Positions 11,474 through 64,000 of a stretch of DNA of 64,000 nucleotides are shown here, piece after piece. Each line of letters begins with the position of its first letter. Within the stretch, counting starts at the first letter, position 1. Made by a program: the position numbers and the translations under genes. Source of the DNA: Escherichia coli (GTDB taxonomy: Bacteria; Pseudomonadota; Gammaproteobacteria; Enterobacterales; Enterobacteriaceae); the NCBI RefSeq assembly GCF_002854065.1, contig NZ_CP024147.1, one strand, 5' to 3'. The notes beneath the pieces are model-generated. The model saw nothing but the letters and a program-made list of their open reading frames with translations, was not told where the DNA came from and ran no database searches.

Positions 11474-11517
11474 AACAGGTGCTGCACACAACCAGACGCG
11501 GCACCTGTTTTATTACC
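11474..11517. terminator. hairpin plus T-run between convergent yhgN and the DprA-like gene (likely bidirectional terminator)
   Basis: Arms aaacaggtgc (11474-11483) and gcacctgttt (11501-11510), followed by ttttatt. Confidence 0.5.
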
Positions 11518-12715: not shown

Positions 12716-14822
12716 CAATTTTTTACCGAGGTAGAAGCAAGGGCAAGAGGATAAACCGTCGGGCAACCTGCCTGGCGTAACAGTGCTGTCAGAACTGTCA
12801 GCGTCCATGCAGAATCCACGATATCGTCAACCAGCAACGCCGGACCAGGCATCAAAGGAGGGGTAATCACAAACGCCCCGTCGAGATTTTGACACTGGTG
12901 GAAACGGTTTTGCTGCATTTTCTGCGGTGGATTGTCCACGACTTTTTCAATGGCATCAATAATAGGTAAGCCAAGTTTCGCCGCCAGTCGCCGGGCAAAA
13001 TCAGGAACCAGGTCGAGGTGCTTTAATGAAGGAACGCAGCATACCCAGGTTGGTTCAGGATGCGGATTCCAGCGTTGGCGAACCATTTCCGCACATGCCT
13101 CCACCAGTTCATCACTGAATCGCCCCGTTTTTTTCTCCTGTGCTACCTGCTTTCCCCACCCGGAATCTCCCCAACGAGAAAGGATTCGCCCCGTAGATCC
13201 TTGTAAAATCGCAGGCAAGTTCCCTTTAAATCCGTATTGCGTAAAAGCCCCAGCTGCCACCTGTTTATTGAGATTTAATGACAGGTCAGCGTGTTTAATA
13301 AATAAGTTTGCCGCATGGAGTAAGCCGCTATCAATGTCGGGCGACAACAACGGATGCTGAAGACAACTGCTACATTTACCACAATGTTCGGCACCTGGCT
13401 CATCGAGTGCGCGGCGCAGAAATTGCATTTTGCACTCCTTGGTCGTGATATAGCTTTCAACGTCTGCCAGCTCACTTTTTCTCTGATTCATCAAATGGTT
13501 AATTCGTTCATGGTCAGGAGAAAAACTGACAATTGTTCTGCGCCATAATTTCTCGGTATACACCACAGGCGATGGATTTTCAGCTACCAATAATTTCAGT
13601 GCTTTTTCTATTTGCCCATAACGGAGATTCGTCCGTTGTTCAATGCCTCGTAAGGTAAGACCGTCATTCACGCTAAGTACGTTGAGTATTTCATGAATTT
13701 GCGCCTCCGCAGGAAAGGCGCTTTCACGGAAGAATTTATGAATAGCACGGTCTTCACTGCCGCAAAGCAGTATGCCAACAGCAGAATCGATACCGCGACC
13801 GGCACGCCCCACCTGTTGGTAGTAACCAACTATCGAACCTGGCATCTGGTAATGAATAACAAACCCCAAATCCGGTTTGTCAAAGCCCATTCCCAGCGCC
13901 GTTGTCGCAACCAGCACTTTAATTTTATTTGCCAGCAACGCCTGCTCCAGATATTCCCTGGCAGTATTAGAATCTTCCGCGCCTTCACAAGTCACGCCGC
14001 TGTAGTAAGCAAATGCACTGATACCATTTTTCCTTAACCACTCGGCGACAAGTTCGGCATCGCGAGTAGTCAGGGTATAAACAATTCCCGATTTGGAAAA
14101 CTGAGGGAAAACTGAGGGATAACCGTTGCTAACCATGCCAGACGGGATGACTGTTCACCTAAGACTAAGGCATCAAGCGCCAAACTTTCGCGAGCCAGCG
14201 TTCCACGCTGAATCACAATGTCACCCAATTGCTGACGGATATCCTCAACGACACGGTTATTCGCTGTCGCGGTTGTACCCAGAACAGGGGTATTCGCAGG
14301 TAGTTGGCGCAAAATATCTAATATACGTCGGTAATCCGGGCGAAAATCGTGGCCCCAATCAGAGATGCAGTGCGCCTCGTCGACCACAAGCAAGCCAATA
14401 TGATCGGCTATAGGATATAAAACCGTTTCGATAAAGTCCTGGTTTGCCAAACGTTCCGGGGAAACCAGCAAGCAATCGACCTCACCTTGCAGCAACTTAT
14501 CGCTAATGCGCTGCCATTCTTCTCTGTTTGTAGAATTCAACGTTTCAGCCGTAATACCTAACCGTTCAGCGGCGGCAACCTGGTTACGCATCAGGGCAAG
14601 CAAAGGAGAGATGATAATTGTCGGGCCAGCGCCGCGATCGCGGAAGATTTTACTGGCGATGAAGTACACAGCACTTTTCCCCCAGCCAGTGCGTTGGACA
14701 ACCAGCAGTTTTCGCCGTTGGTTCACCACCGCGTCTATGGCTTCCCATTGCCCTTCCCTGAAAGTAGCGGTGGTATTTCCTAACATCCGCTGTAAAAGCA
14801 ATTCAGCTGCGTGCTTTTCCAT
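12715..14822 (-). pseudogene. RecQ-like helicase fused to a C-terminal ComF/PRTase-like domain, frameshifted by an 11-bp tandem duplication
   Basis: Two overlapping minus-strand ORFs (14070..14822 and 12715..14136). The N-terminal part carries Walker A QRTGWGKS and DEAH-type VVDEAHCISDWGHDFRPDY; the C-terminal part carries the helicase C-domain (VATTALGMGFDKPDLGFVIHYQMPGSIVGYYQQVGRAGRG), a CxxCxxC cluster and a PRPP-binding-like ALLVDDIVDS segment. Deleting one 11-bp copy in silico joins them into a ~696-codon ORF (...ATVIPQFSKSGIVYTLTTRDAE...). Confidence 0.75.
14097..14118. repeat. perfect 11-bp tandem duplication (aaaactgaggg x2) causing the helicase frameshift
   Basis: Copies at 14097-14107 and 14108-14118 read directly from the sequence. 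Confidence 0.9.
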
Positions 14823-34238: not shown

Positions 34239-34661
34239 AGTCAAAAATCCCCATTCGTGATGTTGTGTTGCTTTGTTTTTATGTGTTAACAAATCAGACT
34301 GTTCTTTTTTTATACTGCACTGTTTTTGCCTGTCTGATTAAGGGTTTAGCGCAGTATTTTGTGATAATAGCGATTAAAGTCCCTATTTTTCAGTCGATTA
34401 AGAACAGATAATATTCTGAATTTATTGATAGATAAACAGAAAAAAGCGCCTTTGTCAGCATAAAATAACGGCACAAAGGGCGGAATAATTCACTACCATT
34501 CAGGGGATTATGCTGGGTATTTTTCATTCTCTAATGTTTTAACTTTGTAATTATTGCTGTTAAAAAATTAATCACCTGCCAAAAGAAATAAAAAAGAGAA
34601 AGCCTCCGATTAAATTATTTCGCTACACTGGTTCCACTTTTGTGATTTACACGGGTTCCCC

Positions 34662-35045
34662 ATGAAGCTGACCATCATTCGATTAGAAAACTTTAGCGAC
34701 CAGGACCGGATTGACCTGCAAAAGATCTGGCCGGAGTATTCCCCTTCCTCTTTACAGGTTGACGATAACCACCGTATCTACGCCGCGCGTTTTAACGAGC
34801 GCCTGCTCGCGGCCGTGCGGGTAACCTTAAGCTGCACGGAGGGCGCACTGGATTCCCTGCGCGTGCGGGAAGTCACCCGCCGTCGCGGTGTGGGGCAATA
34901 TCTGCTGGAAGAGGTTTTGCGTGATAATGCCAGCGTTTCATCCTGGTGGATGGCGGATGCAGGCGTGGAAGATCGCGGCGTGATGGCGGCGTTTATGCAG
35001 GCACTGGGATTTACGGCACAACAGGGCGGCTGGGAAAAGCGTTAA
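34662..35045 (+). CDS. panM: PanD maturation/regulatory factor (GNAT-like)
   Basis: 127-aa ORF MKLTIIRLENFSDQDRIDLQKIWPEY... Confidence 0.88.
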   Translation: MKLTIIRLENFSDQDRIDLQKIWPEYSPSSLQVDDNHRIYAARFNERLLAAVRVTLSCTEGALDSLRVREVTRRRGVGQYLLEEVLRDNASVSSWWMADAGVEDRGVMAAFMQALGFTAQQGGWEKR

Positions 35046-35085
35046 TCGTCAAGTTTGATTTCAAAAGTGATGACCAACGAGAAAT

Positions 35086-35188
<103 letters not shown>

Positions 35189-35244
35189 AAGCAACGTACT
35201 CGATATTAGCAATTTGGCGGCAACCCAAAGTTGCCGATTAATGA

Positions 35245-49986: not shown

Positions 49987-50376
49987 ATGAGACATTACAT
50001 GAAGTGGTTTGCGGCTATTGCTGTTGTGGGTGCTTTAGCAGGTTGCGCGCGTACTGCGCCAATTGATCAGGTTCACTCAACCGTCAGCGCTGGTCATACC
50101 CAGGAACAAGTGAAAAAAGCGATTCTGAAAGCTGGCGTTGAACGCAAATGGATTATGTCCGAAGCCGGACAAGGCATAATTAAAGCACGTCAACAGTCAC
50201 GCGATCATTCAGCGGAAATACGCATTAACTACACGGCATCCAGCTACGATATCAATTATGAAAATAGCCAGAACCTACAAGCGTCAGGCGGACAAATTCA
50301 TAAAAACTACAATCGCTGGGTCCGCAATCTCGACAAAGATATTCAACTGAATTTGTCAGCGGGCGCAGATTTATAA
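49987..50376 (+). CDS. small lipoprotein, first gene of the APE-type cluster
   Basis: 129-aa ORF MRHYMKWFAAIAVVGALAGC (signal peptide plus lipobox); alternative start 49999; lower GC than downstream genes. Confidence 0.7.
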   Translation: MRHYMKWFAAIAVVGALAGCARTAPIDQVHSTVSAGHTQEQVKKAILKAGVERKWIMSEAGQGIIKARQQSRDHSAEIRINYTASSYDINYENSQNLQASGGQIHKNYNRWVRNLDKDIQLNLSAGADL

Positions 50377-50435
50377 TTCTTCCTAAAGTCGGGCCGTTGC
50401 GGTCCGATAATAATTTAATTCCCTCTTAACAGGTT

Positions 50436-51503
50436 GTGCCCAACATGTACGAACAGGATTCTCTTAGCGCACTGGATGCGATTACCGAAGCTCAACGCAT
50501 TGCCTTTGCCCCTATGCTTTTTCAAACAGCACTCTGCCTACGTAATGCGGGTGTACTTTCATATCTGGATCGGCAAGGCAAACATGGCGCAACGCTGGCT
50601 GATATCACCGAACATAGCCATATCAACGAATATGCTGCCAGCGTTCTGTTAGATATGGGCTTAAGCGGGCGAATTATTACCTGTAAAGAGGGAATTTATT
50701 ACCTGGCGAAAATCGGTCATTACCTCCTGCATGACACTATGACTCGCGTGAATATGGATTTCACCCAGGATGTCTGTTACCAGGGGCTCTTCTTCCTCGC
50801 CGATTCACTCAATGAAGGAAAACCTTCCGGGTTAAAAGTATTTGGCGACTGGTCGACGATATATCCGGCACTTTCGCAATTACCAGACGCCGCTCGTGAA
50901 AGCTGGTTTGCGTTTGATCATTACTATTCAGATGGCGCATTTAACGCCGTACTGCCTTATGTATTCGCCAACAACCCCACAACATTGTACGATGTAGGCG
51001 GCAATACGGGTAAGTGGGCTTTGCGTTGCTGCAAATACAATGAAAACATCGCCGTGACGTTATTAGATCTGCCACAACAAATCGTACTAGCGAAAGAAAA
51101 TATCGCGAATGCAGGTTTTTCTGATCGCATAGATTTCCATGCGGTGGATATGCTAAGCGATGCCCCATTACCGGGCGAGGCTGATATCTGGTGGATGAGC
51201 CAATTTTTAGACTGTTTTTCACCCGAACAAATAATTAGCATACTCAGCAAAATTGCCAGCGTAATGAAGCCTGGCGCAAAAGTTTGCATCATGGAGTTGT
51301 TCTGGGATGCGCAGCGGTTTGAAGCAGCATCGTTTAGCCTGAACGCGTCCTCACTTTATTTTACCTGCATGGCAAACGGTAACAGCCGTTTCTATAGTGC
51401 AGAGAAATTTTACGACTATCTGAATAAAGCAGGATTCCAGGTAGCAGAGCGCCACGATAATTTAGGCGTTGGGCATACACTTTTGATATGCCAAAAGAAA
51501 TAA
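50436..51503 (+). CDS. apeB: SAM-dependent (O-)methyltransferase
   Basis: 355-aa ORF; Rossmann SAM motif LYDVGGNTGKWAL. Symbol inferred from conserved ape cluster order; verify. Confidence 0.7.
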   Translation: MPNMYEQDSLSALDAITEAQRIAFAPMLFQTALCLRNAGVLSYLDRQGKHGATLADITEHSHINEYAASVLLDMGLSGRIITCKEGIYYLAKIGHYLLHDTMTRVNMDFTQDVCYQGLFFLADSLNEGKPSGLKVFGDWSTIYPALSQLPDAARESWFAFDHYYSDGAFNAVLPYVFANNPTTLYDVGGNTGKWALRCCKYNENIAVTLLDLPQQIVLAKENIANAGFSDRIDFHAVDMLSDAPLPGEADIWWMSQFLDCFSPEQIISILSKIASVMKPGAKVCIMELFWDAQRFEAASFSLNASSLYFTCMANGNSRFYSAEKFYDYLNKAGFQVAERHDNLGVGHTLLICQKK

Positions 51504-51543
51504 TCGTCACTTAATAATTTTGGTTTACCGCGGGCGCGCGTTG

Positions 51544-52266
51544 ATGAAATTTACATTAAATATTACCGACTGGCAGGCACTGGCGCCTGGACTTAGCGAA
51601 GCGCAGCAATGGCAAGCATGGTCGCGCCAGCCGTGGGCGATTGACCCTGCCGCGCCGTTGGCAAAATTAAGTGAACTGCCAATGATGACCGCCCGCCGCC
51701 TCAGTTCAGGCAGCAAACTGGCTGTTGAATGCGGTCTGGCAATGCTACGCCGCCATCAGCCAGACGCCGTTTTGTATACCAGTCGTCATGGCGAACTGGA
51801 GCGCAATTACCGCATTGTTCATGCACTGGCAACCGAACAGGCGCTTTCTCCGACGGACTTCGCGCTCTCCGTACACAACTCTTCCGTGGGTAACCTGACC
51901 ATTGCGGCCAAACAGCCGATCGTTTCGTCATCGCTTTCGGCTGGTCGCGACACTTTCCAGCAAGGTTTGTGTGAAGTGCTTAGTCTGTTACAGGCGGGCT
52001 ACCAGCGCGTGTTGATGGTCGATTTTGATGGCTTTCTGCCTGAGTTCTATCATCCACAACTGCCCGCAGAAATGCCGACCTGGCCGTACGCCGTCGCGCT
52101 GGTGATTGAAGCTGGCGATGAGTGGCAATGTGGAACGCAGTCAGCCATTGCGGGTAATGAAACAACACTGCCGCAAAGCATGTTGTTTTTACAGCACTAT
52201 TTACAAAATGCGGACACATTTTCACTGCCTGGCGAGCGCGTACAGTGGCGCTGGAGCCGTGGATGA
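51544..52266 (+). CDS. apeC: short KS-like partner protein (chain-length-factor-like)
   Basis: ORF 51520..52266 (TTG); ATG at 51544 gives MKFTLNITDWQALAPG; about 240 aa, far shorter than a full KAS; ATGA overlap with the next gene. Confidence 0.6.
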   Translation: MKFTLNITDWQALAPGLSEAQQWQAWSRQPWAIDPAAPLAKLSELPMMTARRLSSGSKLAVECGLAMLRRHQPDAVLYTSRHGELERNYRIVHALATEQALSPTDFALSVHNSSVGNLTIAAKQPIVSSSLSAGRDTFQQGLCEVLSLLQAGYQRVLMVDFDGFLPEFYHPQLPAEMPTWPYAVALVIEAGDEWQCGTQSAIAGNETTLPQSMLFLQHYLQNADTFSLPGERVQWRWSRG

Positions 52267-53084
52267 GTAAGCTGCTGTCACGTCTGGAGTGGACCTGGCG
52301 ACTGGTCATGACCGGGTTATGTTTTGCCCTGTTTGGTCTCGGCGGCCTGCTGCTTTCTGTCGTGTGGTTTAACATATTGTTAGTTTTGGTGTGGGATACT
52401 TCCCGCCGCCGTCGTTTGGCGCGTCGCAGCATTGCCGCCAGTTTTCGCCTGTTTTTAACTGTCGCGAAAGGGCTTGGCGTGCTGGATTATCGTATTGATG
52501 GCGCTGAAATTTTACGTCAGGAACGCGGTTGCCTCGTCGTAGCCAATCATCCCACGCTGATCGATTACGTGCTGCTGGCGTCAGTCATGCCAGAAACTGA
52601 CTGCCTGGTGAAAAGCGCGCTGTTAAAAAATCCTTTTCTTGGCGGCGTCGTGCGGGCGGCAGATTATTTAATCAACAGCGAAGCTGAAACCCTGTTACCC
52701 CGCTGCCAACAGCGACTGGCACAGGGTGACACTATCCTGATTTTCCCCGAAGGCACGCGAACGAAGCCCGGTGAAAAAATGACGCTGCAGCGCGGGGCGG
52801 CGAATATTGCCGTGCGCTGTGCCAGCGATTTACGCATCGTGACGATCGGCTGTAGCGAGCATCTGCTGGATAAACAAAGTAAATGGTATGACGTTCCACC
52901 TGACCGGCCGTTTTTTACGGTTGCAGTCCATGGTCGGGTTGAAATCAATAAATTTTACGATGCAACTTCACAAGAACCGGCGCTGGCAGCAAGGCAGTTA
53001 AACCGGCATCTTTTGCTTCAATTACAACAAGGTTGTTTACCTCTCTCAGGAATAAATAATGCAAGCGCTTTATCTGGAAATTAA
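52263..53084 (+). CDS. lysophospholipid/glycerol-3-phosphate acyltransferase family protein
   Basis: ORF 52245..53084; HX4D motif NHPTLIDY and FPEGTRT motif; start chosen at the ATGA overlap (52263). Confidence 0.75.
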   Translation: MSKLLSRLEWTWRLVMTGLCFALFGLGGLLLSVVWFNILLVLVWDTSRRRRLARRSIAASFRLFLTVAKGLGVLDYRIDGAEILRQERGCLVVANHPTLIDYVLLASVMPETDCLVKSALLKNPFLGGVVRAADYLINSEAETLLPRCQQRLAQGDTILIFPEGTRTKPGEKMTLQRGAANIAVRCASDLRIVTIGCSEHLLDKQSKWYDVPPDRPFFTVAVHGRVEINKFYDATSQEPALAARQLNRHLLLQLQQGCLPLSGINNASALSGN

Positions 53085-53316
53085 AAACCTCATCATCAGC
53101 ACCCTCAATCTGGACGAGTTGACGCCTGATGATATCGATACCGACGCGCCGCTGTTTGGCGACGGTTTAGGGCTGGACTCTATCGATGCCCTGGAACTGG
53201 GACTGGCAGTAAAAAATGAGTACGGCATCGTGCTCTCTGCGGAAAGCGAAGAGATGCGTCAGCACTTTTTCTCCGTCGCCACTCTGGCCTCTTTCATTGC
53301 TGCGCAACGTGCCTGA
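53059..53316 (+). CDS. apeE: acyl carrier protein
   Basis: 85-aa acidic ORF with phosphopantetheine-site motif LGLDSIDALEL. Confidence 0.8.
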   Translation: MQALYLEIKNLIISTLNLDELTPDDIDTDAPLFGDGLGLDSIDALELGLAVKNEYGIVLSAESEEMRQHFFSVATLASFIAAQRA

Positions 53317-53327
53317 GGAAAGCCATC

Positions 53328-53579
53328 ATGACAGAACAACAAACCGTCTATCAGGAAGTCTCAGCCCTGCTGGTTAAGCTGTTTGAAATCGATCCGCAGG
53401 ACATCAAACCTGAAGCGCGCCTGTACGAAGATCTGGAACTGGACAGCATCGACGCCGTTGACATGATTGTGCACCTGCAAAAGAAAACCGGTAAGAAAAT
53501 CAAGCCGGAAGAGTTTAAAGCAGTGCGTACAGTCCAGGATGTCGTCGAGGCTGTAGAACGCCTGCTACAAGAAGCCTGA
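53328..53579 (+). CDS. apeF: acyl carrier protein
   Basis: 83-aa ORF with LELDSIDAVDM motif. Confidence 0.8.
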   Translation: MTEQQTVYQEVSALLVKLFEIDPQDIKPEARLYEDLELDSIDAVDMIVHLQKKTGKKIKPEEFKAVRTVQDVVEAVERLLQEA

Positions 53580-53583
53580 TCTG

Positions 53584-54165
53584 ATGTCGGGCATTCGCTC
53601 GCTACCGATGATTAAGCTGCTGACTGGATTATTGCTGCTCGCCTGGCCGTTTGTGATTTGGTTTGGCTTAGCGCATAACGGCCTGCACTGGCTGTTGCCG
53701 CTAATAGCGTTGCTGCTTTTGTTGCGCCTGCGCCAGACCCGTCGCCAGGCGGGGCCGCTCCAGGTCGTCACACAAATCGTCGCTGTCGTGGGCATCGCAT
53801 TATGTGTCGCCAGCGTTCTGTTGAAAACACACCAGCTACTGCTGTTTTACCCGGTAGTGGTTAACGCGGTCATGCTGGCGGTTTTTGGCGGTTCGCTGTG
53901 GTCGGCAATGCCGATAGTTGAGCGGCTGGCGCGTTTGCAGGAGCCAGATCTGCCGGAAAAGGGCATGCGCTATACCCGCCGCGTCACGCAAATCTGGTGC
54001 GGCTTTTTCATCATCAACGGTGGAATTGCCCTCTTTACCGCGCTTTATGCCGATATGTCGTTATGGACCGCCTGGAACGGCATGATTGCTTATTTGTTGA
54101 TGGGAACATTAATGGCTGGTGAATGGCTGGTGCGCCGTCAGGTGATGAAAAGAGATCGCGCATGA
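53584..54165 (+). CDS. integral membrane protein of unknown function
   Basis: 193-aa ORF with several hydrophobic segments (LLLAWPFVIWFGL, VVGIALCVASVLL, ...). Confidence 0.65.
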   Translation: MSGIRSLPMIKLLTGLLLLAWPFVIWFGLAHNGLHWLLPLIALLLLLRLRQTRRQAGPLQVVTQIVAVVGIALCVASVLLKTHQLLLFYPVVVNAVMLAVFGGSLWSAMPIVERLARLQEPDLPEKGMRYTRRVTQIWCGFFIINGGIALFTALYADMSLWTAWNGMIAYLLMGTLMAGEWLVRRQVMKRDRA

Positions 54166-55523
54166 AGCAGACCTTACCGCTTGCACGCTGGCTGACTGCG
54201 CCACGCTCTGATGACACACCCATTGCGTGGCTGGACGAAAGCTTCTGGACGCTGGGCGATTTGCGTCACGATGTCGCGCAACTTATCTGCCGCTTGCAGC
54301 AACAGCCGGGTGAACGCTGGGCGCTGTGCTTTGAGAACAGCTATCTGTTTATCGTTGCCCTGCTCGCCACGCTACACGCCGGAAAAACGCCGGTGCTTCC
54401 GGGGCATAACCGTGTTATCCAGCTTAACGAGCAACGTGAACTTTTTGATGGTGTGCTTAGCGACAGCGAACTTAACTGGCAAGGTTCATTGCTGTTGGTA
54501 GCAAGTTCCCCACAAATCGCGACACAATCCTTCACCTTTGCCGCTATAGCGCCAGAGGCTTTTATCGAGCTGTTTACCTCCGGTTCCACGGGACAGCCGA
54601 AACGGGTGATTAAACCTGTTCATTTGCTGGATCGTGAAGCAGAACTGCTGGCTGAACGATTAGGCGCACGTCTGGCGGGTTGTCGTGTCGTCGGTTCCGT
54701 ATTGCCGCAGCATTTGTACGGCCTGACTTTTCGCGTTTTCCTGCCCATGGCGTTGGGATTACCGCTGCACGCCGCCATGCTCTGGTATGTCGAACAGTTT
54801 GCCGCGTTGAGTCATCAGCATCGCTATATCTTCATCAGCAGCCCGGCATTTTTGAAGCGCCTGGATACCCAGCTTTCTCCGCCACCCGTTCAGGTGCTTC
54901 TCTCTGCTGGCGGTGAGCTGCCGTGGCAGGATGTACAACACACCGCAAGCTGGCTGCGCGTCTGGCCTGATGAAATCTACGGCAGCACGGAAACCGGTGT
55001 CATCGCCTGGCGTTACCGCGAACAAGAGCAACGCCGCTGGCTACCCTTCCCTGGTATGCAGTTCCAGGCCGAAGGTGATTCTTTTCGTCTCTTTTCACCG
55101 CTGATGGCGGAAGATAACGGCCTGTTACTCGACGATCTCTTGCAGTTTAGCCAGGACGGTCAGTTCCATCTGATGGGGCGTCGTGGGCGCATCGTTAAGA
55201 TTGAAGAAAAACGTATTTCACTCCAGGAAGTAGAACAACGTCTGCTGGCGCTGGACGGTATTCGCGAGGCGGCGGCAGTTCCCGTTACGCGCGGCGGGCG
55301 TCAGAGCATAGGCGTTTTGCTGGTGCTGGATGACGAAGCTCATCTGCAATGGCAGAACGGCGGCGGGCATAGCCAGGAAATGACCTGGCGGCGTTTACTG
55401 CGCCCGACGCTGGAGCCAGTTGCTATTCCGCGTTACTGGCGCGTTATTGATGAAATGCCAGTAAACAGTATGAACAAGCGTGTCTATGCGCAATTACAGG
55501 AGTTATTTCATGAAGCCCCATGA
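54162..55523 (+). CDS. apeH: AMP-dependent synthetase/ligase (acyl/aryl-activating enzyme)
   Basis: ORF 54123..55523; start at the ATGA overlap 54162 (MKQTLPLARW); AMP-binding motif TSGSTGQPKRV. Confidence 0.78.
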   Translation: MKQTLPLARWLTAPRSDDTPIAWLDESFWTLGDLRHDVAQLICRLQQQPGERWALCFENSYLFIVALLATLHAGKTPVLPGHNRVIQLNEQRELFDGVLSDSELNWQGSLLLVASSPQIATQSFTFAAIAPEAFIELFTSGSTGQPKRVIKPVHLLDREAELLAERLGARLAGCRVVGSVLPQHLYGLTFRVFLPMALGLPLHAAMLWYVEQFAALSHQHRYIFISSPAFLKRLDTQLSPPPVQVLLSAGGELPWQDVQHTASWLRVWPDEIYGSTETGVIAWRYREQEQRRWLPFPGMQFQAEGDSFRLFSPLMAEDNGLLLDDLLQFSQDGQFHLMGRRGRIVKIEEKRISLQEVEQRLLALDGIREAAAVPVTRGGRQSIGVLLVLDDEAHLQWQNGGGHSQEMTWRRLLRPTLEPVAIPRYWRVIDEMPVNSMNKRVYAQLQELFHEAP

Positions 55524-55863
55524 AATCGAGCGCCATCAGGCACAAACGAATCACCTTGAAATTGTTCTGCATCTCAGGGCGGATCTGTTCTGGTTTCGCG
55601 GTCATTTTGCCGTGCAACCATTACTCCCAGGAGTTGCGCAAATCGACTGGGCGATGAGCTACGCGCTCAATCTGCTCGCGCCTGGCTGGCGTTTTCACTC
55701 CATTCAGAACATAAAATTCCAGTCTCCGTTGCTGCCGGAAAACCGCGTCACGCTCGCGCTTAACTGGCAGGAAGAACGCCAGATTCTGAGCTTTAGCTAT
55801 CAGCGTCACGACGGTGACGCCCGCCACACCGCCAGTAGCGGGAAGATCCGCCTATGTCGGTAA
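55510..55863 (+). CDS. apeI: hotdog-fold (3R)-hydroxyacyl-ACP dehydratase-like protein
   Basis: ORF 55480..55863; FabA/FabZ-like motif GHFAVQPLLPGV; start 55510 overlaps the upstream gene. Confidence 0.7.
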   Translation: MKPHEIERHQAQTNHLEIVLHLRADLFWFRGHFAVQPLLPGVAQIDWAMSYALNLLAPGWRFHSIQNIKFQSPLLPENRVTLALNWQEERQILSFSYQRHDGDARHTASSGKIRLCR

Positions 55864-57530
55864 ACTTTTCTCCCTGCGTGTTGATTCCCTGCTATAACCA
55901 CGGCGCGATGATGCCGGGCGTGCTGGCGCGTCTTAAGCCATTTAATCTCCCCTGTATTGTGGTGGACGACGGCAGCGATGCCGCCACGCAACAGCAACTG
56001 GATAATCTGGTTAGCGAACAGCCTGGCGTGACCTTAATTCGCTTAGCAGAAAACGCAGGTAAAGGCGCGGCAGTGATGCGTGGCTTACAGGCAGCGGCAG
56101 ACGCAGGGTTCAGCCATGCGGTGCAGGTGGATGCTGACGGTCAACATGCGATTGAAGATATCCCCAAACTGCTGGCACTCGCTGAACGACACCCTGCGGC
56201 GCTGATCTCCGGCCAGCCAATTTACGATGACTCCATCCCCCGCTCACGGCTTTACGGGCGCTGGGTCACCCACGTCTGGGTATGGATCGAAACGCTCTCC
56301 CTGCAACTGAAAGACAGCATGTGCGGCTTTCGCGTTTATCCGGTTGCGCCAACGCTGCAACTGGCAAAACACGCCACCATCGGCAAGCGGATGGATTTCG
56401 ACACTGAAGTGATGGTGCGCCTCTACTGGCAGGGAAACACCAGCTATTTCGTGCCGACCCGCGTCACCTATCCACTGGACGGGCTTTCGCATTTTGATGC
56501 CCTGAAAGATAACGTCCGCATCTCGCTCATGCACACGCGTCTGTTTTTCGGCATGTTACCGCGTATTCCTTCACTGCTGATGCGCCGCTCTTCCAGCCAC
56601 TGGGCGCGGCAGAGTGAAGTGAAAGGATTATGGGGAATGCGCCTGATGCTGCTGGTCTGGCGTCTGCTGGGAAGAACGGCGTTTAGCGCGCTGCTTTACC
56701 CGGTGGTGGGCGTCTACTGGCTCACTGCTTCTCGTGCGCGCAAAGCGTCGCAAGACTGGCTCGCCCGTGTACGACAGCATCAACCACAGGCGGCAAAACT
56801 CAACAGCTATCAGCACTTTCTACGTTTCGGTAATGCCATGCTCGACAAAATCGCCAGTTGGCGCGGCGAGCTGCAACTGGGGCGCGATGTGCTGTTTGCG
56901 CCAGGCGCAGAAGCGGCACTTAACGTCAGCGATCCGCGCGGCAAATTGCTGCTGGCCTCGCATCTTGGCGATGTGGAAGTGTGCCGGGCGCTGGCAAAAA
57001 TTCAGGGCTACAAAACCATTAACGCGCTGGTGTTTAGCGAAAACGCCCAACGCTTTAAACAGATAATGCAGGAGATGGCCCCGCAGGCCGGCATCAACCT
57101 GATGCCGGTAACGGATATCGGCCCGGAAACCGCCATCCTGCTCAAAGAGAAGCTGGATAACGGCGAATGGGTGGCGATTGTCGGTGACCGCATCGCCGTC
57201 AACCCGCAACGCGGCGGCGACTGGCGCGTCTGCTGGAGTCCGTTTATGGGCCAGCCTGCGCCCTTCCCACAGGGGCCGTTTATTCTCGCGTCTATTTTGC
57301 GCTGCCCGGTGAATCTGATTTTCGCCCTGCGCCAGCACGGCAAGCTGCATATTCACTGCGAAACCTTTGCCGACCCGCTGCTGTTGCCGCGTGGCGAACG
57401 CCAACAGGCGCTGCAAAACGCTATCGACCACTACGCCGCGCGTCTGGAACATTACGCGCTCCAGTCGCCCCTCGACTGGTTTAATTTTTTCGATTTCTGG
57501 CAACTGCCGGAAATTCAGGACAAGGAGTAA
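55854..57530 (+). CDS. bifunctional GT2 glycosyltransferase / lipid-A-type acyltransferase-like protein
   Basis: 558 aa; N-terminus CVLIPCYNHG...VVDDGSDA...DADGQH (GT-A DxD); C-terminal half resembles HtrB/LpxL-type acyltransferases. Confidence 0.7.
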   Translation: MSVNFSPCVLIPCYNHGAMMPGVLARLKPFNLPCIVVDDGSDAATQQQLDNLVSEQPGVTLIRLAENAGKGAAVMRGLQAAADAGFSHAVQVDADGQHAIEDIPKLLALAERHPAALISGQPIYDDSIPRSRLYGRWVTHVWVWIETLSLQLKDSMCGFRVYPVAPTLQLAKHATIGKRMDFDTEVMVRLYWQGNTSYFVPTRVTYPLDGLSHFDALKDNVRISLMHTRLFFGMLPRIPSLLMRRSSSHWARQSEVKGLWGMRLMLLVWRLLGRTAFSALLYPVVGVYWLTASRARKASQDWLARVRQHQPQAAKLNSYQHFLRFGNAMLDKIASWRGELQLGRDVLFAPGAEAALNVSDPRGKLLLASHLGDVEVCRALAKIQGYKTINALVFSENAQRFKQIMQEMAPQAGINLMPVTDIGPETAILLKEKLDNGEWVAIVGDRIAVNPQRGGDWRVCWSPFMGQPAPFPQGPFILASILRCPVNLIFALRQHGKLHIHCETFADPLLLPRGERQQALQNAIDHYAARLEHYALQSPLDWFNFFDFWQLPEIQDKE

Positions 57531-57533
57531 AGG

Positions 57534-57956
57534 GTGCTTAACGATCCCCGATTTACCGCTGAAGTCGAGCTGACCATTCCCTTTCACGACGTCGATATGA
57601 TGGGCGTGGCCTGGCACGGTAACTATTTTCGCTACTTTGAAGTGGCCCGCGAGGCGCTGCTCAACCAGTTCAATTACGGCTATCGGCAGATGAAAGAGTC
57701 CGGTTATTTGTGGCCAGTGGTCGATGCGCGGGTGAAATATCGCCACGCCCTCACCTTTGAGCAACGCATCCGCGTGCGTGCGCATATCGAAGAGTTCGAA
57801 AACCGTCTGCGGATTGGCTATCAGATTTTCGATGCCGAAACGGGCAAACGCGCCACCACCGGATACACCATTCAGGTCGCGGTCGACGAGCAAAGTCGCG
57901 AACTGTGCTTTGTCAGCCCCGATATTCTGTTTGAACGCATGGGAGTCAAACCATGA
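57534..57956 (+). CDS. apeK: 4HBT/YbgC-type acyl thioesterase
   Basis: 140-aa ORF (GTG start); hotdog thioesterase pattern HDVDMMGVAWHGNYFRYFEVAR. Confidence 0.75.
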   Translation: MLNDPRFTAEVELTIPFHDVDMMGVAWHGNYFRYFEVAREALLNQFNYGYRQMKESGYLWPVVDARVKYRHALTFEQRIRVRAHIEEFENRLRIGYQIFDAETGKRATTGYTIQVAVDEQSRELCFVSPDILFERMGVKP

Positions 57957-58558
57957 AATTTTTACCGCTACTGGCGCTGCTGATTAGCCCGTTTGTGAGC
58001 GCCCTGACCCTGGACGATCTTCAGCAACGCTTTACCGAACAATCGGTGATCCGCGCCCATTTCGATCAAACCCGGACGATTAAAGATCTGCCGCAGCCGC
58101 TGCGATCTCAGGGCCAGATGTTGATCGCCCGCGACCAGGGGCTGTTGTGGGATCAAACCTCACCGTTCCCCATGCAACTATTACTGGACGATAAACGCAT
58201 GGTGCAGGTGATCAACGGTCAGCCGCCGCAAATCATCACGGCAGAAAACAACCCGCAGATGTTTCAGTTTAACCACCTGCTGCGCGCGCTGTTCCAGGCC
58301 GATCGCAAAGTGCTGGAACAAAACTTCCGCGTCGAATTTACCGACAAAGGCGAAGGCCGCTGGACGCTGCGCCTGACCCCAACCACCACGCCGCTGGATA
58401 AAATTTTCAACACCATCGATCTCGCCGGGCAAACCTATCTGGAGAGCATTCAACTTAATGATAAACAGGGCGATCGCACCGATATTGCTCTTACCCAACA
58501 TCAACTGACGCCAGCGCAACTGACCGATGACGAACGCCAACGTTTTGCCGCCCAGTAA
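57953..58558 (+). CDS. LolA-like outer-membrane lipoprotein carrier
   Basis: 201 aa, signal peptide MKFLPLLALLISPFVSA; LolA-family length and layout. Confidence 0.65.
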   Translation: MKFLPLLALLISPFVSALTLDDLQQRFTEQSVIRAHFDQTRTIKDLPQPLRSQGQMLIARDQGLLWDQTSPFPMQLLLDDKRMVQVINGQPPQIITAENNPQMFQFNHLLRALFQADRKVLEQNFRVEFTDKGEGRWTLRLTPTTTPLDKIFNTIDLAGQTYLESIQLNDKQGDRTDIALTQHQLTPAQLTDDERQRFAAQ

Positions 58559-60845
58559 ACGCCCCGCGCTGTTATGGGGGCTAGTCTGCCTGGTCATGGC
58601 GGCGGCGTTGCTGATCCTGCTGCCGCAATCACGGCTGAACAGTAGCGTGCTGGCTATGTTACCCAAACAGGCGATGGGCGATATTCCCCCAGCGCTGAAT
58701 GACGGCTTTATGCAGCGTCTGGACCGCCAACTGGTGTGGCTGGTCAGCCCCGGTAAAGAGGCTAATCCCAGGGTGGCTCAGGAGTGGCTGACGCTGCTGC
58801 AAAAATCCGCTGCGCTCGGCGACGTTAAAGGGCCAATGGATGCCGCCAGCCAGCAAGCGTGGGGCGCGTTTTTCTGGCAGCACCGCAACGGCCTGATTGA
58901 CCCCGACACCCGCGCCCGCCTGCAAAACGGCGGCGAAGCGCAGGCGCAGTGGATCCTCTCCCAGCTTTATTCTGCATTCTCCGGGGTAAGCGGCAAGGAG
59001 CTGCAAAACGATCCGCTGATGTTAATGCGCGGCTCGCAGCTGGCGATGGCAAAAAATGGCCAGCGTTTGCGGCTGATGGACGGCTGGCTGGTGACGCAGG
59101 ATCCCCAGGGCAACTACTGGTATCTGCTGCACGGCGAACTGGCGGGATCGTCGTTTGATATGCAGCAAACCCACCAGCTCATCACGACCCTGAATACGCT
59201 GGAAAAGGATCTGAAAACGCGTTACCCACAGGCGCAGTTGCTCTCGCGCGGCACGGTATTTTACAGCGATTACGCCAGTCAACAGGCGAAGCAGGATATC
59301 TCAACCCTGGGCGTGGCAACGCTGCTGGGGGTGATATTACTGATTGTGGCGGTGTTCCGCTCTTTGCGCCCATTGTTGCTTTGCGTGATTTCCATCGGCA
59401 TCGGCGCGCTGGCGGGAACGGTCGCCACTTTATTGATTTTCGGTGAATTACACCTGATGACGCTGGTGATGAGCATGAGCGTTATCGGCATTTCCGCTGA
59501 CTACACGCTCTATTATCTCACCGAGCGGATGGTGCACGGCAACGACGTTTCGCCGTGGCAAAGCCTGGCGAAAGTACGCAATGCCCTGCTGCTGGCGCTG
59601 CTCACCACCGTGGCGGCATATCTGATTATGATGCTCGCCCCCTTCCCCGGCATTCGCCAGATGGCGATTTTTGCCGCCGTCGGGTTGAGCGCCTCCTGTC
59701 TGACCGTCCTGTTCTGGCATCCGTGGCTGTGCCGTGGCCTGCCGGTGCGTCCGGTTCCGGCGATGGCGCTGATGCTGCGCTGGCTGGCAGCGTGGCGGCG
59801 CAATAAAAAACTGTCGCTGGGTCTGCCCGTCGCGCTGGCGCTGTTTTCGCTGGCGGGGATGTCAATGCTGCGCGTCGATGACGATATCTCGCAGTTACAG
59901 GCGCTGCCGCAGCATATTCTGGCGCAGGAGAAAGCCATTACCGCCCTGACCGGACAAAGCGTCGATCAAAAATGGTTTGTGGTTTACGGCGATTCGCCAC
60001 AGCAAACATTGCGGCGACTGGAGAAATATACCGCCTCACTTGAGTATGCGAAAAAAGAGGGGCTTATCAGCAACTACCGCACCATTCCGCTGAACTCCCT
60101 TGCGCGGCAGGAGGAAGATTTACAACTGCTGAAAACGGCGGCCCCGACAGTAACAAAAGCGCTGCAAAATGCCGGGCTGACGGCAGTGAACCCGGATCTC
60201 AACGCCATGCCAGTGAACGTTGATGAATGGCTGGCAAGCCCTGCCAGTGAAGGCTGGCGTCTGCTGTGGCTGACGCTGGAAAACGGCGAAAGCGGCGTAC
60301 TGGTGCCGGTTGAAGGGGTTAAAAGTAGCGCGTTGATGCAGGAAATCGCCACATATTACCCTTGCGGCATTGCCTGGGTTGATCGCAAAAGCACCTTTGA
60401 TGAGTTGTTCGCGCTTTACCGTTATGTCTTAACCGGCTTGTTGCTGGTGGCGCTGGCGGTGATTGCCTGCGGCGCAGTGGCCCGTCTCGGCTGGCGCAAA
60501 GGGCTTATCAGCCTTGTACCTTCGGTGCTTTCGCTGGGTTGTGGTCTGGCGGTGCTGGCGATGAGCGGGCAGGCGGTGAATCTCTTTTCGCTGCTGGCGC
60601 TGGTGCTGGTGCTTGGCATCGGCATCAACTACACGCTGTTTTTCAGTAATCCGCGCGGCACACCATTAACTTCGCTACTGGCGATCACGCTGGCAATGCT
60701 CACCACCTTGCTGACGCTGGGAATGCTGATATTCAGCGCCACCCAGGCCATCAGCAGTTTTGGCATTGTGCTGGTGAGCGGTATTTTCACCGCCTTCCTG
60801 CTTTCGCCGCTGGCGATGCCCGATAAAAAGAGAACAAAAAAATGA
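58527..60845 (+). CDS. MMPL/RND-superfamily exporter
   Basis: 772-aa ORF with two blocks of TM helices separated by large soluble domains. Confidence 0.75.
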   Translation: MTNANVLPPSKRPALLWGLVCLVMAAALLILLPQSRLNSSVLAMLPKQAMGDIPPALNDGFMQRLDRQLVWLVSPGKEANPRVAQEWLTLLQKSAALGDVKGPMDAASQQAWGAFFWQHRNGLIDPDTRARLQNGGEAQAQWILSQLYSAFSGVSGKELQNDPLMLMRGSQLAMAKNGQRLRLMDGWLVTQDPQGNYWYLLHGELAGSSFDMQQTHQLITTLNTLEKDLKTRYPQAQLLSRGTVFYSDYASQQAKQDISTLGVATLLGVILLIVAVFRSLRPLLLCVISIGIGALAGTVATLLIFGELHLMTLVMSMSVIGISADYTLYYLTERMVHGNDVSPWQSLAKVRNALLLALLTTVAAYLIMMLAPFPGIRQMAIFAAVGLSASCLTVLFWHPWLCRGLPVRPVPAMALMLRWLAAWRRNKKLSLGLPVALALFSLAGMSMLRVDDDISQLQALPQHILAQEKAITALTGQSVDQKWFVVYGDSPQQTLRRLEKYTASLEYAKKEGLISNYRTIPLNSLARQEEDLQLLKTAAPTVTKALQNAGLTAVNPDLNAMPVNVDEWLASPASEGWRLLWLTLENGESGVLVPVEGVKSSALMQEIATYYPCGIAWVDRKSTFDELFALYRYVLTGLLLVALAVIACGAVARLGWRKGLISLVPSVLSLGCGLAVLAMSGQAVNLFSLLALVLVLGIGINYTLFFSNPRGTPLTSLLAITLAMLTTLLTLGMLIFSATQAISSFGIVLVSGIFTAFLLSPLAMPDKKRTKK

Positions 60846-61426
60846 TCAAATCCACATTCTGGCGAGCGTTCGCCCTGACCGCTACGCTTATCCTCACCGG
60901 CTGTAGCCACTCGCAACCAGAACAGGAAGGCCGCCCGCAGGCGTGGCTGCAACCTGGCACGCGCATCACGCTGCCGGCACCAGGGATTTCACCCGCAGTC
61001 AATTCGCAGCAACTGTTGACCGGCAGCTTCAACGGCAAAACCCAGTCGCTGTTAGTGATGCTTAACGCCGACGATCAGAAAATCACCCTTGCCGGGCTGT
61101 CGTCGGTCGGCATTCGCCTGTTTCTGGTGACCTACGATGCGCAAGGGCTACGCGCCGAGCAATCCATCGTCGTCCCACAGTTACCGCCCGCAAGTCAGGT
61201 ACTGGCTGACGTGATGCTCAGCCACTGGCCGATTAGCGCCTGGCAACCGCAACTTCCCGCAGGATGGACACTTCGCGACAACGGTGACAAACGCGAGCTG
61301 CGTAACGCCAGCGGCAAACTGGTCACGGAAATCACCTATCTGAATCGCAAGGGCAAACGCGTGCCAATCAGCATTGAGCAGCATGTCTTTAAATACCACA
61401 TCACCATTCAATACTTAGGTGACTGA
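60842..61426 (+). CDS. lipoprotein (DUF3261-like)
   Basis: 194 aa, MIKSTFWRAFALTATLILTGC lipobox. Confidence 0.65.
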   Translation: MIKSTFWRAFALTATLILTGCSHSQPEQEGRPQAWLQPGTRITLPAPGISPAVNSQQLLTGSFNGKTQSLLVMLNADDQKITLAGLSSVGIRLFLVTYDAQGLRAEQSIVVPQLPPASQVLADVMLSHWPISAWQPQLPAGWTLRDNGDKRELRNASGKLVTEITYLNRKGKRVPISIEQHVFKYHITIQYLGD

Positions 61427-62597
61427 TATGATTTATATTTCCGCCGTCGGCATGATCAACGCCCTGGGAAATAACCTTGACGAAATCGCAACCAACCTGA
61501 CTCGCGGTGTTGCTCCCGGCATGCGCCCGCGCGCAGGCTGGTTGCAGGGGCATCCGCAGGCGGTCCTGGCTGGCGTGGATGGCGAGCTTCCGCTTATCCC
61601 GGAAAAATTCGCTGCGCACCGCTCGCGCAACAATCAGATCCTGCTGGCGGCGCTGGCGCAGATCCAGCCGCAGGTTGATGACGCTATCGCGAAATATGGT
61701 CGCGAGCGCATCGCGATTGTACTTGGCACCAGCACCTCCGGCCTGCATGAAGGCGACACGCACGTTAACCTGCGCACCCACGGGCAGCCGAGCACCACAT
61801 GGCACTACGCGCAACAGGAACTCGGCGATCCGTCGCGTTTTCTCAGCCACTGGCTGGCGCTCGACGGCCCGGCCTATACCCTTTCAACCGCCTGCTCTTC
61901 CAGCGCCAGAGCGATAATCAGCGGGCGCAGGCTTATCGAAGCGGGGCTGGTCGATGCCGCCATTGTGGGTGGCGCAGACACCCTGAGCCGGATGCCGATT
62001 AACGGTTTTCACAGCCTCGAATCGCTGTCGCCAACCTTATGTCAGCCGTTTGGTCGTGACCGCGCAGGTATCACCATTGGTGAAGGGGCGGGGCTAATGC
62101 TGCTGACCCGGGAACCGCAGCCCATCGCGTTGCTGGGCGTTGGTGAATCGAGCGACGCTTACCATATTTCGGCCCCGCATCCGCAGGGCGAAGGGGCGAT
62201 CCGCGCCATTAATCAGGCACTGACCGATGCGCAGCTTACGCCAGATGACGTCGGCTATATCAACCTGCACGGCACCGCCACGCAACTCAACGACCAGATT
62301 GAATCGATGGTGCTTAACGCCCTGTTTGGCGAACGCGTACCGTGCAGCTCCACCAAACATTTGACCGGCCACACGCTGGGCGCGGCGGGCATTACCGAAG
62401 CAGCAATCAGTATGTTGATCTTACAGCGTGATTTACCGCTGCCCGCCCAAGATTTCAGCCTGTCGCCACGCGATCCCACGCTGCCACCCTGCGGCATTAT
62501 CGAAAAACCGCAGCCGCTGGCTCGTCCGGTGATCCTGTCCAATTCCTTCGCCTTTGGCGGCAATAACGCCAGCATTCTGCTCGGGAGGGTTTCGTGA
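61419..62597 (+). CDS. apeO: beta-ketoacyl-ACP synthase (KAS I/II-like)
   Basis: 392 aa; active-site Cys TACSSS, His motifs HGTATQLND and GHTLGAAG. Confidence 0.85.
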   Translation: MTDMIYISAVGMINALGNNLDEIATNLTRGVAPGMRPRAGWLQGHPQAVLAGVDGELPLIPEKFAAHRSRNNQILLAALAQIQPQVDDAIAKYGRERIAIVLGTSTSGLHEGDTHVNLRTHGQPSTTWHYAQQELGDPSRFLSHWLALDGPAYTLSTACSSSARAIISGRRLIEAGLVDAAIVGGADTLSRMPINGFHSLESLSPTLCQPFGRDRAGITIGEGAGLMLLTREPQPIALLGVGESSDAYHISAPHPQGEGAIRAINQALTDAQLTPDDVGYINLHGTATQLNDQIESMVLNALFGERVPCSSTKHLTGHTLGAAGITEAAISMLILQRDLPLPAQDFSLSPRDPTLPPCGIIEKPQPLARPVILSNSFAFGGNNASILLGRVS

Positions 62598-63058
62598 GCC
62601 ACTATTTATCCCCCGGCGCTTATCTGCCCCACGACGCGCCCATGTTACTGCTGGAAGACGTGGTGAGCGTCAGCGATGACAGCGCGGTGTGCCGCGTGAC
62701 GGTTTCGCCCAGTGGCGTACTGGCACCGTTTCTCGACCCGGACGGCAATCTCCCCGGCTGGTTTGCCCTTGAACTGATGGCGCAAACCGTCGGCGTCTGG
62801 TCTGGCTGGCATCGCCACCAGCAGGGCAAAAACAGTATTGAGTTAGGGATGATACTGGGCGCGCGTGAATTGCTTTGCGCCGCTGGCATTCTGCCCGCAG
62901 GCCAGACGCTGACCATTACCGTCAAACTGCTGATGCAGGACGATCGCTTCGGCAGTTTTGAGTGCAGCATCAACGACGGCGAGGCGACGGGCCGCATTAA
63001 CACCTTCCAGCCGACCGCGGAAGAACTTACCACCCTGTTTCAACAAGGAGCGTCCTGA
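62594..63058 (+). CDS. apeP: hotdog-fold dehydratase
   Basis: 154-aa ORF; 4-nt overlap with KS, 1-nt overlap with KR. Confidence 0.7.
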   Translation: MSHYLSPGAYLPHDAPMLLLEDVVSVSDDSAVCRVTVSPSGVLAPFLDPDGNLPGWFALELMAQTVGVWSGWHRHQQGKNSIELGMILGARELLCAAGILPAGQTLTITVKLLMQDDRFGSFECSINDGEATGRINTFQPTAEELTTLFQQGAS

Positions 63059-63789
63059 TGAGTCGTTCAGTTCTGGTTACTGGTGCCAGCAAAGGCATTG
63101 GTCGCGCCATCGCCTGCCAACTGGCGGCAGACGGCTTTAACATTGGCGTTCACTATCACCGTGACGCCACAGGCGCTCAGGAAACGCTGAATGCCATTGT
63201 CGCCAACGGGGGTAACGGGCGTTTGCTCAGTTTCGACGTCGCAAACCGCGAACAGTGTCGGGAAGTGCTGGAGCATGAGATCGCGCAACACGGTGCCTGG
63301 TACGGCGTGGTCAGTAACGCCGGGATCGCCCGCGATGCCGCTTTTCCGGCTTTAAGCGATGACGACTGGGATGCGGTGATCCACACCAACCTCGACAGTT
63401 TCTACAACGTCATTCAGCCGTGCATTATGCCAATGATCGGCGCGCGCCAGGGTGGGCGCATCATCACGCTGTCCTCGGTTTCCGGCGTAATGGGCAATCG
63501 CGGCCAGGTGAATTACAGCGCAGCCAAAGCCGGAATTATCGGCGCAACTAAAGCGCTGGCTATCGAACTCGCGAAGCGCAAAATCACCGTCAACTGCATC
63601 GCGCCGGGGCTTATTGATACCGGGATGATCGAAATGGAAGAGAGCGCTCTGAAAGAGGCAATGTCGATGATCCCCATGAAACGTATGGGCCAGGCGGAAG
63701 AAGTTGCCGGGCTTGCCAGTTATTTAATGTCTGATATTGCGGGTTACGTCACCCGCCAGGTTATTTCCATCAACGGAGGGATGTTATGA
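63058..63789 (+). CDS. apeQ: 3-oxoacyl-ACP reductase (SDR, FabG-like)
   Basis: 243 aa; TGASKGIGRAIA NAD(P)-binding and YSAAKAG catalytic motifs. Confidence 0.88.
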   Translation: MSRSVLVTGASKGIGRAIACQLAADGFNIGVHYHRDATGAQETLNAIVANGGNGRLLSFDVANREQCREVLEHEIAQHGAWYGVVSNAGIARDAAFPALSDDDWDAVIHTNLDSFYNVIQPCIMPMIGARQGGRIITLSSVSGVMGNRGQVNYSAAKAGIIGATKALAIELAKRKITVNCIAPGLIDTGMIEMEESALKEAMSMIPMKRMGQAEEVAGLASYLMSDIAGYVTRQVISINGGML

Positions 63790-64000
63790 CACGTCGCGTA
63801 GTGATTACAGGAATGGGCGGCGTGACTGCCTTTGGTGAAAACTGGCAGGACGTTTCTGCACGCTTACTGGCGTATGAAAATGCGGTGCGCAAAATGCCGG
63901 AGTGGCAGGTCTACGATGGCCTGCACACCCTGCTTGGCGCGCCTGTTGATGATTTCACGCTACCGGAGCACTATACCCGCAAGCGTATCCGTGCGATGGG
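63786..64000 (+). CDS. apeR: beta-ketoacyl-ACP synthase (partial, N-terminal 71 codons; continues beyond window)
   Basis: ATG at 63786 (ATGA overlap with KR); MTRRVVITGMGGVTAFGENWQD (KAS N-terminus). Confidence 0.75.
   Translation, partial: MTRRVVITGMGGVTAFGENWQDVSARLLAYENAVRKMPEWQVYDGLHTLLGAPVDDFTLPEHYTRKRIRAM

Follow-up and report, generated by a model that had tools for sequence, protein, structure and literature searches.

Aryl polyene (APE) gene clusters encode type II PKS systems in which a small protein, ApeC, accompanies the ketosynthase (KS) ApeO. The X. doucetiae protein was crystallized together with ApeO (PDB 6QSP, ApeC as chain B; Grammbitter et al. 2019, J Am Chem Soc 141:16615), and it is reported in PMC8253772 to form an in vitro heterocomplex with ApeO and to function as a chain length factor (CLF). 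The ApeC of A. baumannii (AbApeC; PDB 7F28 chains A and C) likewise heterodimerizes with its ApeO; it consists of a single thiolase domain in which the first half-domain is kept and nearly all of the second is lost, and in the AbApeO-AbApeC complex, ApeO His138 and a Glu from ApeC form the end of the cavity (PMC8358021). A review assigns the setting of product length to the depth of the pocket in ApeO-ApeC (PMC9006962). In E. coli CFT073, most core-gene deletions in a deletion series abolished the pigment, with apeA, apeF, apeD, apeJ, and apeK named in that account as exceptions (PMC8253772).

The actinorhodin KSbeta (1TQY_B) and the ishigamide Iga12 protein (6KXF_B) are also inactive KS partners of thiolase fold that close the substrate tunnel. 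Such classical CLFs have a Gln at the Cys position, and their genes adjoin the KS gene, in many cases so closely that the stop and start codons overlap. PMC9006962 also describes classical KS and CLF genes as neighbors.

Here, we analyzed a 64,000-nucleotide stretch of E. coli DNA (the window) with a focus on a short KS-like gene, apeC. The gene is already known, as it carries a RefSeq annotation, crystal structures of its orthologues are available, and genetic dissection of the near-identical CFT073 cluster has been published. The present analysis settles the start codon, identifies the residues that are invariant in the family, and documents a complete and apparently intact copy of the cluster at the yhhT-acpT locus.

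Aryl polyene cluster at the yhhT-acpT locus

The window holds a complete, apparently intact APE cluster, the last gene of which runs past the window end (Table 1). Gene coordinates were taken from the RefSeq feature table of the TR01 locus, which is 98.7% identical, and re-mapped onto the window. The cluster begins with the lipoprotein gene apeA, the methyltransferase gene apeB, apeC as the third gene, the acyltransferase gene apeD, and the ACP genes apeE and apeF, and continues with apeG (membrane protein), apeH (AMP-ligase), apeI (dehydratase), apeJ (glycosyltransferase), and apeK (thioesterase). These are followed by apeL (LolA-like), apeM (MMPL), apeN (DUF3261), apeO (KS), apeP (dehydratase), apeQ (reductase), and the terminal KS gene apeR. 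Pfam and NCBIfam matches among the neighbors include ApeI-like, DUF3261, LolA-like, MMPL, and FabG2, and the cluster corresponds gene for gene to the CFT073 cluster as listed in Table 1 of PMC8253772.

Table 1. Positions of apeC, its partner genes, and selected codons in the 64,000-nucleotide window
Feature	Coordinates	Strand	Evidence or remark
Aryl polyene cluster apeA-apeR, between yhhT and acpT	49999..64000	+	RefSeq table, Pfam, NCBIfam; apeR cut by window end
8-codon in-frame extension from TTG 51520	51520..51543	+	Rejected as start
apeC CDS, 240 aa plus stop	51544..52266	+	ORF, PF13723, 6QSP_B, RefSeq WP_001313357.1, AF2
Codons for invariant Arg51-Arg52	51694..51699	+	71/71 sequences
Codons for invariant Val110-His111-Asn112	51871..51879	+	71/71 family members
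ATGA overlap, apeC stop TGA 52264-52266 and apeD start ATG 52263	52263..52266	+	Sequence, RefSeq
apeD, lysophospholipid acyltransferase family	52263..53084	+	PF01553 E 1.3e-19; RefSeq; Johnston et al. Table 1
apeO, active ketosynthase partner	61428..62597	+	6QSP_A E 5.6e-175; PF00109 and PF02801; NF006618 557 bits

The gene apeC sits directly upstream of the acyltransferase gene apeD and then the tandem ACP genes (apeB-apeC-apeD-apeE-apeF). Its stop codon overlaps the apeD start in an ATGA motif, which suggests translational coupling of apeC to apeD, and a Shine-Dalgarno-like sequence upstream of the apeD ATG pairs at -5.6 kcal/mol. The longest apeD ORF would begin at GTG 52245, whereas RefSeq uses ATG 52263, and the ATG pairs better with the anti-Shine-Dalgarno sequence. 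Both the apeC-apeD-ACP-ACP order and the apeC-apeD overlap are kept in relatives at 27 to 30% identity. In a distant APE-type cluster (GCA_000743945.1/CP009238.1), a single fusion protein of 573 aa (positions 12574-14295 of that locus) combines the ApeH AMP-ligase with the ApeI-like dehydratase, whereas apeH and apeI of the window are separate, overlapping genes; the same distant cluster has its glycosyltransferase and a lipid A-type acyltransferase as separate genes and a tryptophan-halogenase-like flavoenzyme after an MMPL-sized gene.

The APE cluster is found in two E. coli chromosomal settings. One is yhhT-acpT, next to the PPTase gene, the O157:H7-type arrangement that De Lay and Cronan (2006) discuss. 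The other is that of CFT073, where IS remnants and a hemagglutinin pseudogene surround the cluster. The two copies share the apeA-R order, and the CFT073 ApeC (c1202, APE_Ec) is 95.2% identical to the window copy in nucleotides and 94.6% in protein (227/240). Identity along the cluster is uneven. It reaches 90.4% over 50251-54409 and 96.3% over 55409-64000, and the interval of about 54410-55408 (apeH) has no megablast-level match in CFT073. This suggests a mosaic history of the cluster.

Reading frame and translation start of apeC

The plus-strand frame of apeC is uninterrupted from either TTG 51520 or ATG 51544 to the TGA, and the product from the ATG has 240 aa. An earlier sequence-only reading of this DNA had described a product of about 240 aa, far shorter than the KAS of the same window, and had left the choice between the two starts ambiguous. 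The size difference holds (240 versus 389 aa, or 392 aa if the KAS is read from GTG 61419), and the ambiguity can now be settled in favor of ATG 51544.

The intergenic DNA between apeB and apeC was uninformative in this respect, as the alignment of three E. coli alleles shows no variation in any of its 79 columns, the last of which cover the first two apeC codons, and does not separate TTG from ATG. The start was therefore decided by the N-termini of homologues. In a family alignment of 71 diverse ApeC members, the M1 column of the ATG 51544 version is the starting point in 65, and the M1 of the X. doucetiae protein (XdApeC) aligns with it. A length of 239 to 241 aa predominates by far in the 120 listed clusters of close homologues, and a single cluster has the 248 aa expected from TTG. 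RefSeq also begins the gene at ATG 51544. Pairing with the anti-Shine-Dalgarno sequence is weak for ATG 51544 (-2.6 kcal/mol) and absent for TTG 51520 (+1.2 kcal/mol). The homologue N-termini, the RefSeq usage, and the Shine-Dalgarno pairing together led us to reject TTG 51520, and ATG 51544 is the preferred translation start.

Family membership

The apeC product matches PF13723 (Ketoacyl-synt_2) in Pfam with an E value of 1.1e-66 and 225.1 bits, where the cut-off is 25, and its residues 23-238 cover the entire profile (positions 1-223 of 223). Among PDB sequences, it aligns with 6QSP chain B from residues 1-239 to 1-239 (E 1.4e-92; 60% identity, or 143 of 238 aligned positions) and with the A. 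baumannii ApeC, 7F28_A, at E 1.2e-14, or 6.7e-44 when the family profile is used. The RefSeq CDS WP_001313357.1 occupies exactly 51544-52266 under the name "beta-ketoacyl synthase chain length factor"; NCBIfam, KS models included, holds no model that matches ApeC. An exhaustive HMMER scan at E<=1e-3 recovered 2113 clusters of ApeC relatives (50% identity), nearly all of about 240 aa. The product of 51544-52266 carries every defining feature of the ApeC family that can be tested on sequence, and we assign apeC on these grounds as the ApeC orthologue of E. coli, the CLF of the APE type II PKS.

The closest structural reference is the X. doucetiae protein, which resembles the window protein in length (239 versus 240 aa), in sequence from end to end (60% identity), in its VHN motif, in the predicted fold (TM 0.95), in its ApeO partner (E 5.6e-175), and in cluster architecture. 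The two differ in host, and the cluster of the window lies at yhhT-acpT. AbApeC shares the family, the single thiolase half-domain, and presumably the heterodimer with ApeO; its identity to the window protein is 26% by Foldseek, and it lacks some 20 N-terminal residues, which make up the first helix in XdApeC (PMC8358021) and are kept in the window protein.

Predicted fold and relationship to ketosynthases

An AlphaFold2 (AF2) model of ApeC built on the 71-sequence alignment reached a mean pLDDT of 95.4 and a pTM of 0.92. The best match of this model in a Foldseek search of the PDB is 6QSP_B (TM 0.95, rmsd 1.4 Å), followed by 7F28, then by the ishigamide CLF Iga12 (6KXF_B, E 2e-8) and the actinorhodin CLF (1TQY_B, E 2.4e-7), with many further matches to FabF, KasA, and FabH structures (E 1e-7 to 1e-5). 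The predicted fold of ApeC is thiolase-like. The sequence-only reading had named the absence of a thiolase-fold relationship as one result that would speak against its interpretation, and the matches to CLFs and FabF show that the relationship exists.

Sequence methods alone give no such link. BLASTP of ApeC against ApeO was not significant (E 0.56), comparison of the 71-member ApeC profile with a thin alignment of three KS sequences by hhalign gave E 0.12 and a probability of 0.5%, and the ApeC profile searched against PDB sequences found, beyond the two ApeC entries, no KS match better than E 1.1. The relationship between ApeC and the ketosynthases thus rests on structure. The model, the Foldseek matches, and the description of the family in PMC8358021 agree on a half-size protein of about 240 aa with one thiolase half-domain, in contrast to the classical CLFs, which have 360 to 402 residues in the solved chains and both thiolase halves; the TM scores of ApeC against 1TQY_B and 6KXF_B are 0.39 to 0.46 when normalized to the target.

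Loss of the active site and invariant residues

No conserved Cys was found in the ApeC family, as Cys occurs in at most 14 sequences in any column of the 71-member alignment, and the three Cys of the window protein (Cys63, Cys143, and Cys196) are all variable. PF13723 is the sole Pfam domain detected in ApeC. The PF02801 half, in which both KS catalytic His are located, is present in ApeO and missing from ApeC. The protein accordingly differs from active elongating ketosynthases of the FabF/FabB/ApeO type in having neither the Cys-His-His triad nor PF00109 and PF02801. The earlier reader had failed to find a canonical active-site Cys by eye and had named an intact triad as the observation that would speak against a CLF-like role; the alignment bears out the first, and ApeC has no such triad.

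Eight positions are invariant in all 71 members (R51, R52, S102, P103, F106, V110, H111, and N112). The invariant Val-His-Asn appears to stand where ketosynthases have Ala-Cys. A local alignment of LSVHNSS with LSTACSS sets N112 of ApeC opposite C156 of ApeO, although this HSP is not significant alone, and N112 directly precedes the helix 113-122 in the AF2 model. The nucleophilic Cys of ketosynthases likewise lies at the N-terminus of a helix. The local alignment and the place of N112 at the start of its helix suggest that Asn112 replaces the KS nucleophile Cys. Unlike the classical CLFs, with their Gln, ApeC would have Asn at this position. A weak match of the ApeC profile (E 1.1) is PDB 9S5H_C, a protein of 412 aa annotated as "3-oxoacyl-ACP synthase" that has TVLNAP at the position of SVHNSS in ApeC; its companion chain 9S5H_B is a good relative of ApeO (E 4.5e-47), and the two chains may be another pair of a KS and an inactive partner with Asn at the dead site.

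The invariance of H111 and N112 is more than a purely structural vestige seems to need. ApeC might retain some chemistry, such as malonyl-ACP decarboxylation or substrate gating through His111-Asn112, by analogy with the role of Gln in KSQ and in classical CLFs. Decarboxylation in ketosynthases is driven by two His of the C-terminal thiolase half. That half is absent from the 240-aa ApeC, with its single thiolase domain and PF13723 only, and decarboxylative priming is not needed because ApeH primes with 4-hydroxybenzoate (PMC8253772). We regard residual chemistry as extremely unlikely.

A further thought is that His111-Asn112, with Val110, Ser102-Pro103, and Phe106, and Arg51-Arg52 might form a functional site rather than inert vestiges. 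At the tunnel end, such a site could recognize the 4-hydroxyphenyl head group; alternatively, it could dock one of the two ACPs, with Arg51-Arg52 as candidate interface or ACP-docking residues. This is speculative and unlikely to be correct; if true, ApeC would actively select substrate or carrier protein and would be no passive molecular ruler.

Selection on apeC

A gene with about 60% of the length of a KS, no catalytic residues, and a weak Shine-Dalgarno sequence could be taken for the decayed, functionless remnant of a full-length ketosynthase. The differences between three E. coli alleles of apeC are mostly synonymous, with a dN/dS of 0.15 to 0.19, which demonstrates purifying selection and identifies the short ORF as a genuine gene and no chance frame. 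The consistent length of about 240 aa across the 2113 clusters, the agreement of the high-confidence predicted fold with a crystal structure, and the maintenance of gene position and apeD overlap in distant taxa also contradict decay. A pseudogene is refuted by these conservation data and has practically no chance of being the right explanation.

The partner ketosynthase ApeO

The KAS of the window is assigned by its PDB, Pfam, and NCBIfam matches (Table 1) as the ApeO orthologue. Its triad of Cys156, His281, and His315 is intact, within the motifs TAC156SSS, H281GTAT, and GH315TLGAAG. The gene had been recognized correctly in the sequence-only reading, as 61419-62597, but its start had not, since RefSeq begins it at ATG 61428. 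The alignment with 6QSP_A begins at residue 2 of the ATG 61428 version, and this ATG pairs with the anti-Shine-Dalgarno sequence at -3.7 kcal/mol, better than GTG 61419. The end of apeC (52266) and the start of apeO lie 9.2 kb apart, with eleven genes between them; where classical CLF genes adjoin the KS gene, apeC overlaps apeD instead.

That same reading had taken the short protein for a chain-length-factor-like partner of the KAS. This proposal has fared well, as the protein is 60% identical to the X. doucetiae ApeC that was crystallized with ApeO, RefSeq names it a chain length factor, and the KAS belongs with ApeO. On the same comparison, the E. coli ApeC and ApeO probably heterodimerize.

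Distribution and differences from TR01

The gene apeC is present in 824 of 5426 complete E. coli genomes, always on the chromosome, and 12 of these 824 carry it at >=99% identity to the window allele. Typical O157:H7 strains have an apeC that is 92.7% identical; that of TR01, labeled O157:H7, matches at 100%. At least 10 RefSeq genomes are 100% identical to the window over 51400-52400. Over the full 64 kb, the window and TR01 share 98.4 to 99.1% identity, with indels.

Two other regions of the window were noted. Between yhgN and gntU, minus-strand genes for a DprA-like protein (11513-12808) and a RecQ-family helicase span 11513-14822. The helicase is a single CDS of 2097 nt in TR01, but in the window it is split into two overlapping ORFs (12715-14136, 473 aa; 14070-14822, 250 aa) that lie in different frames. 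The split points to a frameshift, which would reflect either a pseudogene or a sequencing error. TR01 also has an AtaT/AtaR toxin-antitoxin pair between panM and livJ (TR01 locus 34295-35095). The window strain appears to be without this module, because about 127 bp (window 35086-35213) stand in place of about 870 bp of TR01 sequence (TR01 locus 34339-35213).

Discussion

We consider it highly probable that apeC encodes a half-size, catalytically dead CLF that pairs with ApeO in a pseudo-symmetric KS:CLF heterodimer and sets the polyene length. In the proposed mechanism, ApeC, which retains essentially only the first of the two KS thiolase half-domains and no catalytic residues, would assemble with the full-length ApeO, whose gene follows 9.2 kb downstream in the cluster. 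ApeH would load the 4-hydroxybenzoyl starter, and ApeO, with its Cys-His-His machinery, would carry out decarboxylative condensations that add malonyl-ACP units to it. ApeC would complete the dimer interface and close the far end of the substrate tunnel, and the polyene length would thereby be set. The ketoreductase ApeQ and the dehydratases ApeI and ApeP would process each round, and the finished aryl polyene would receive a lipid anchor and reach the outer membrane by export. ApeC would work like a classical type II PKS CLF but is none, being half the size and not encoded beside the KS.

The literature found contains no experimental work on ApeC:ApeO from E. coli, and we found no evidence that contradicts ApeC as the CLF partner of ApeO. 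Both the heterodimer and the control of chain length by the E. coli proteins are deduced from the orthologous complexes. A different division of labor would make ApeC an obligate structural or solubilizing subunit with an ACP-docking surface, leave the length to ApeO, ApeR, or downstream enzymes, and render "CLF" a misnomer. Consistent with this, A. baumannii ApeO-ApeC has a very high affinity for ACP1 (Kd 74 nM), and A. baumannii ApeR modulates both product throughput and length distribution (PMC8358021). The invariant, surface-type R51 and R52 would fit docking, and the literature consulted on the complex yielded no mutagenesis of the ApeC tunnel. However, the AbApeO-AbApeC cavity closes on ApeC Glu together with ApeO His138, a Glu at a possibly equivalent position (E144 in E. 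coli ApeC) is conserved in 67 of the 71 family members, and the review cited above puts product length on the depth of the ApeO-ApeC pocket (PMC9006962). A purely structural ApeC is therefore very unlikely in our judgment, and a CLF that closes the ApeO tunnel is the reading we prefer.

The biological interest of the pathway lies in its product, as the APE pigment protects pathogenic E. coli from oxidative stress and promotes biofilm formation (PMC8253772).
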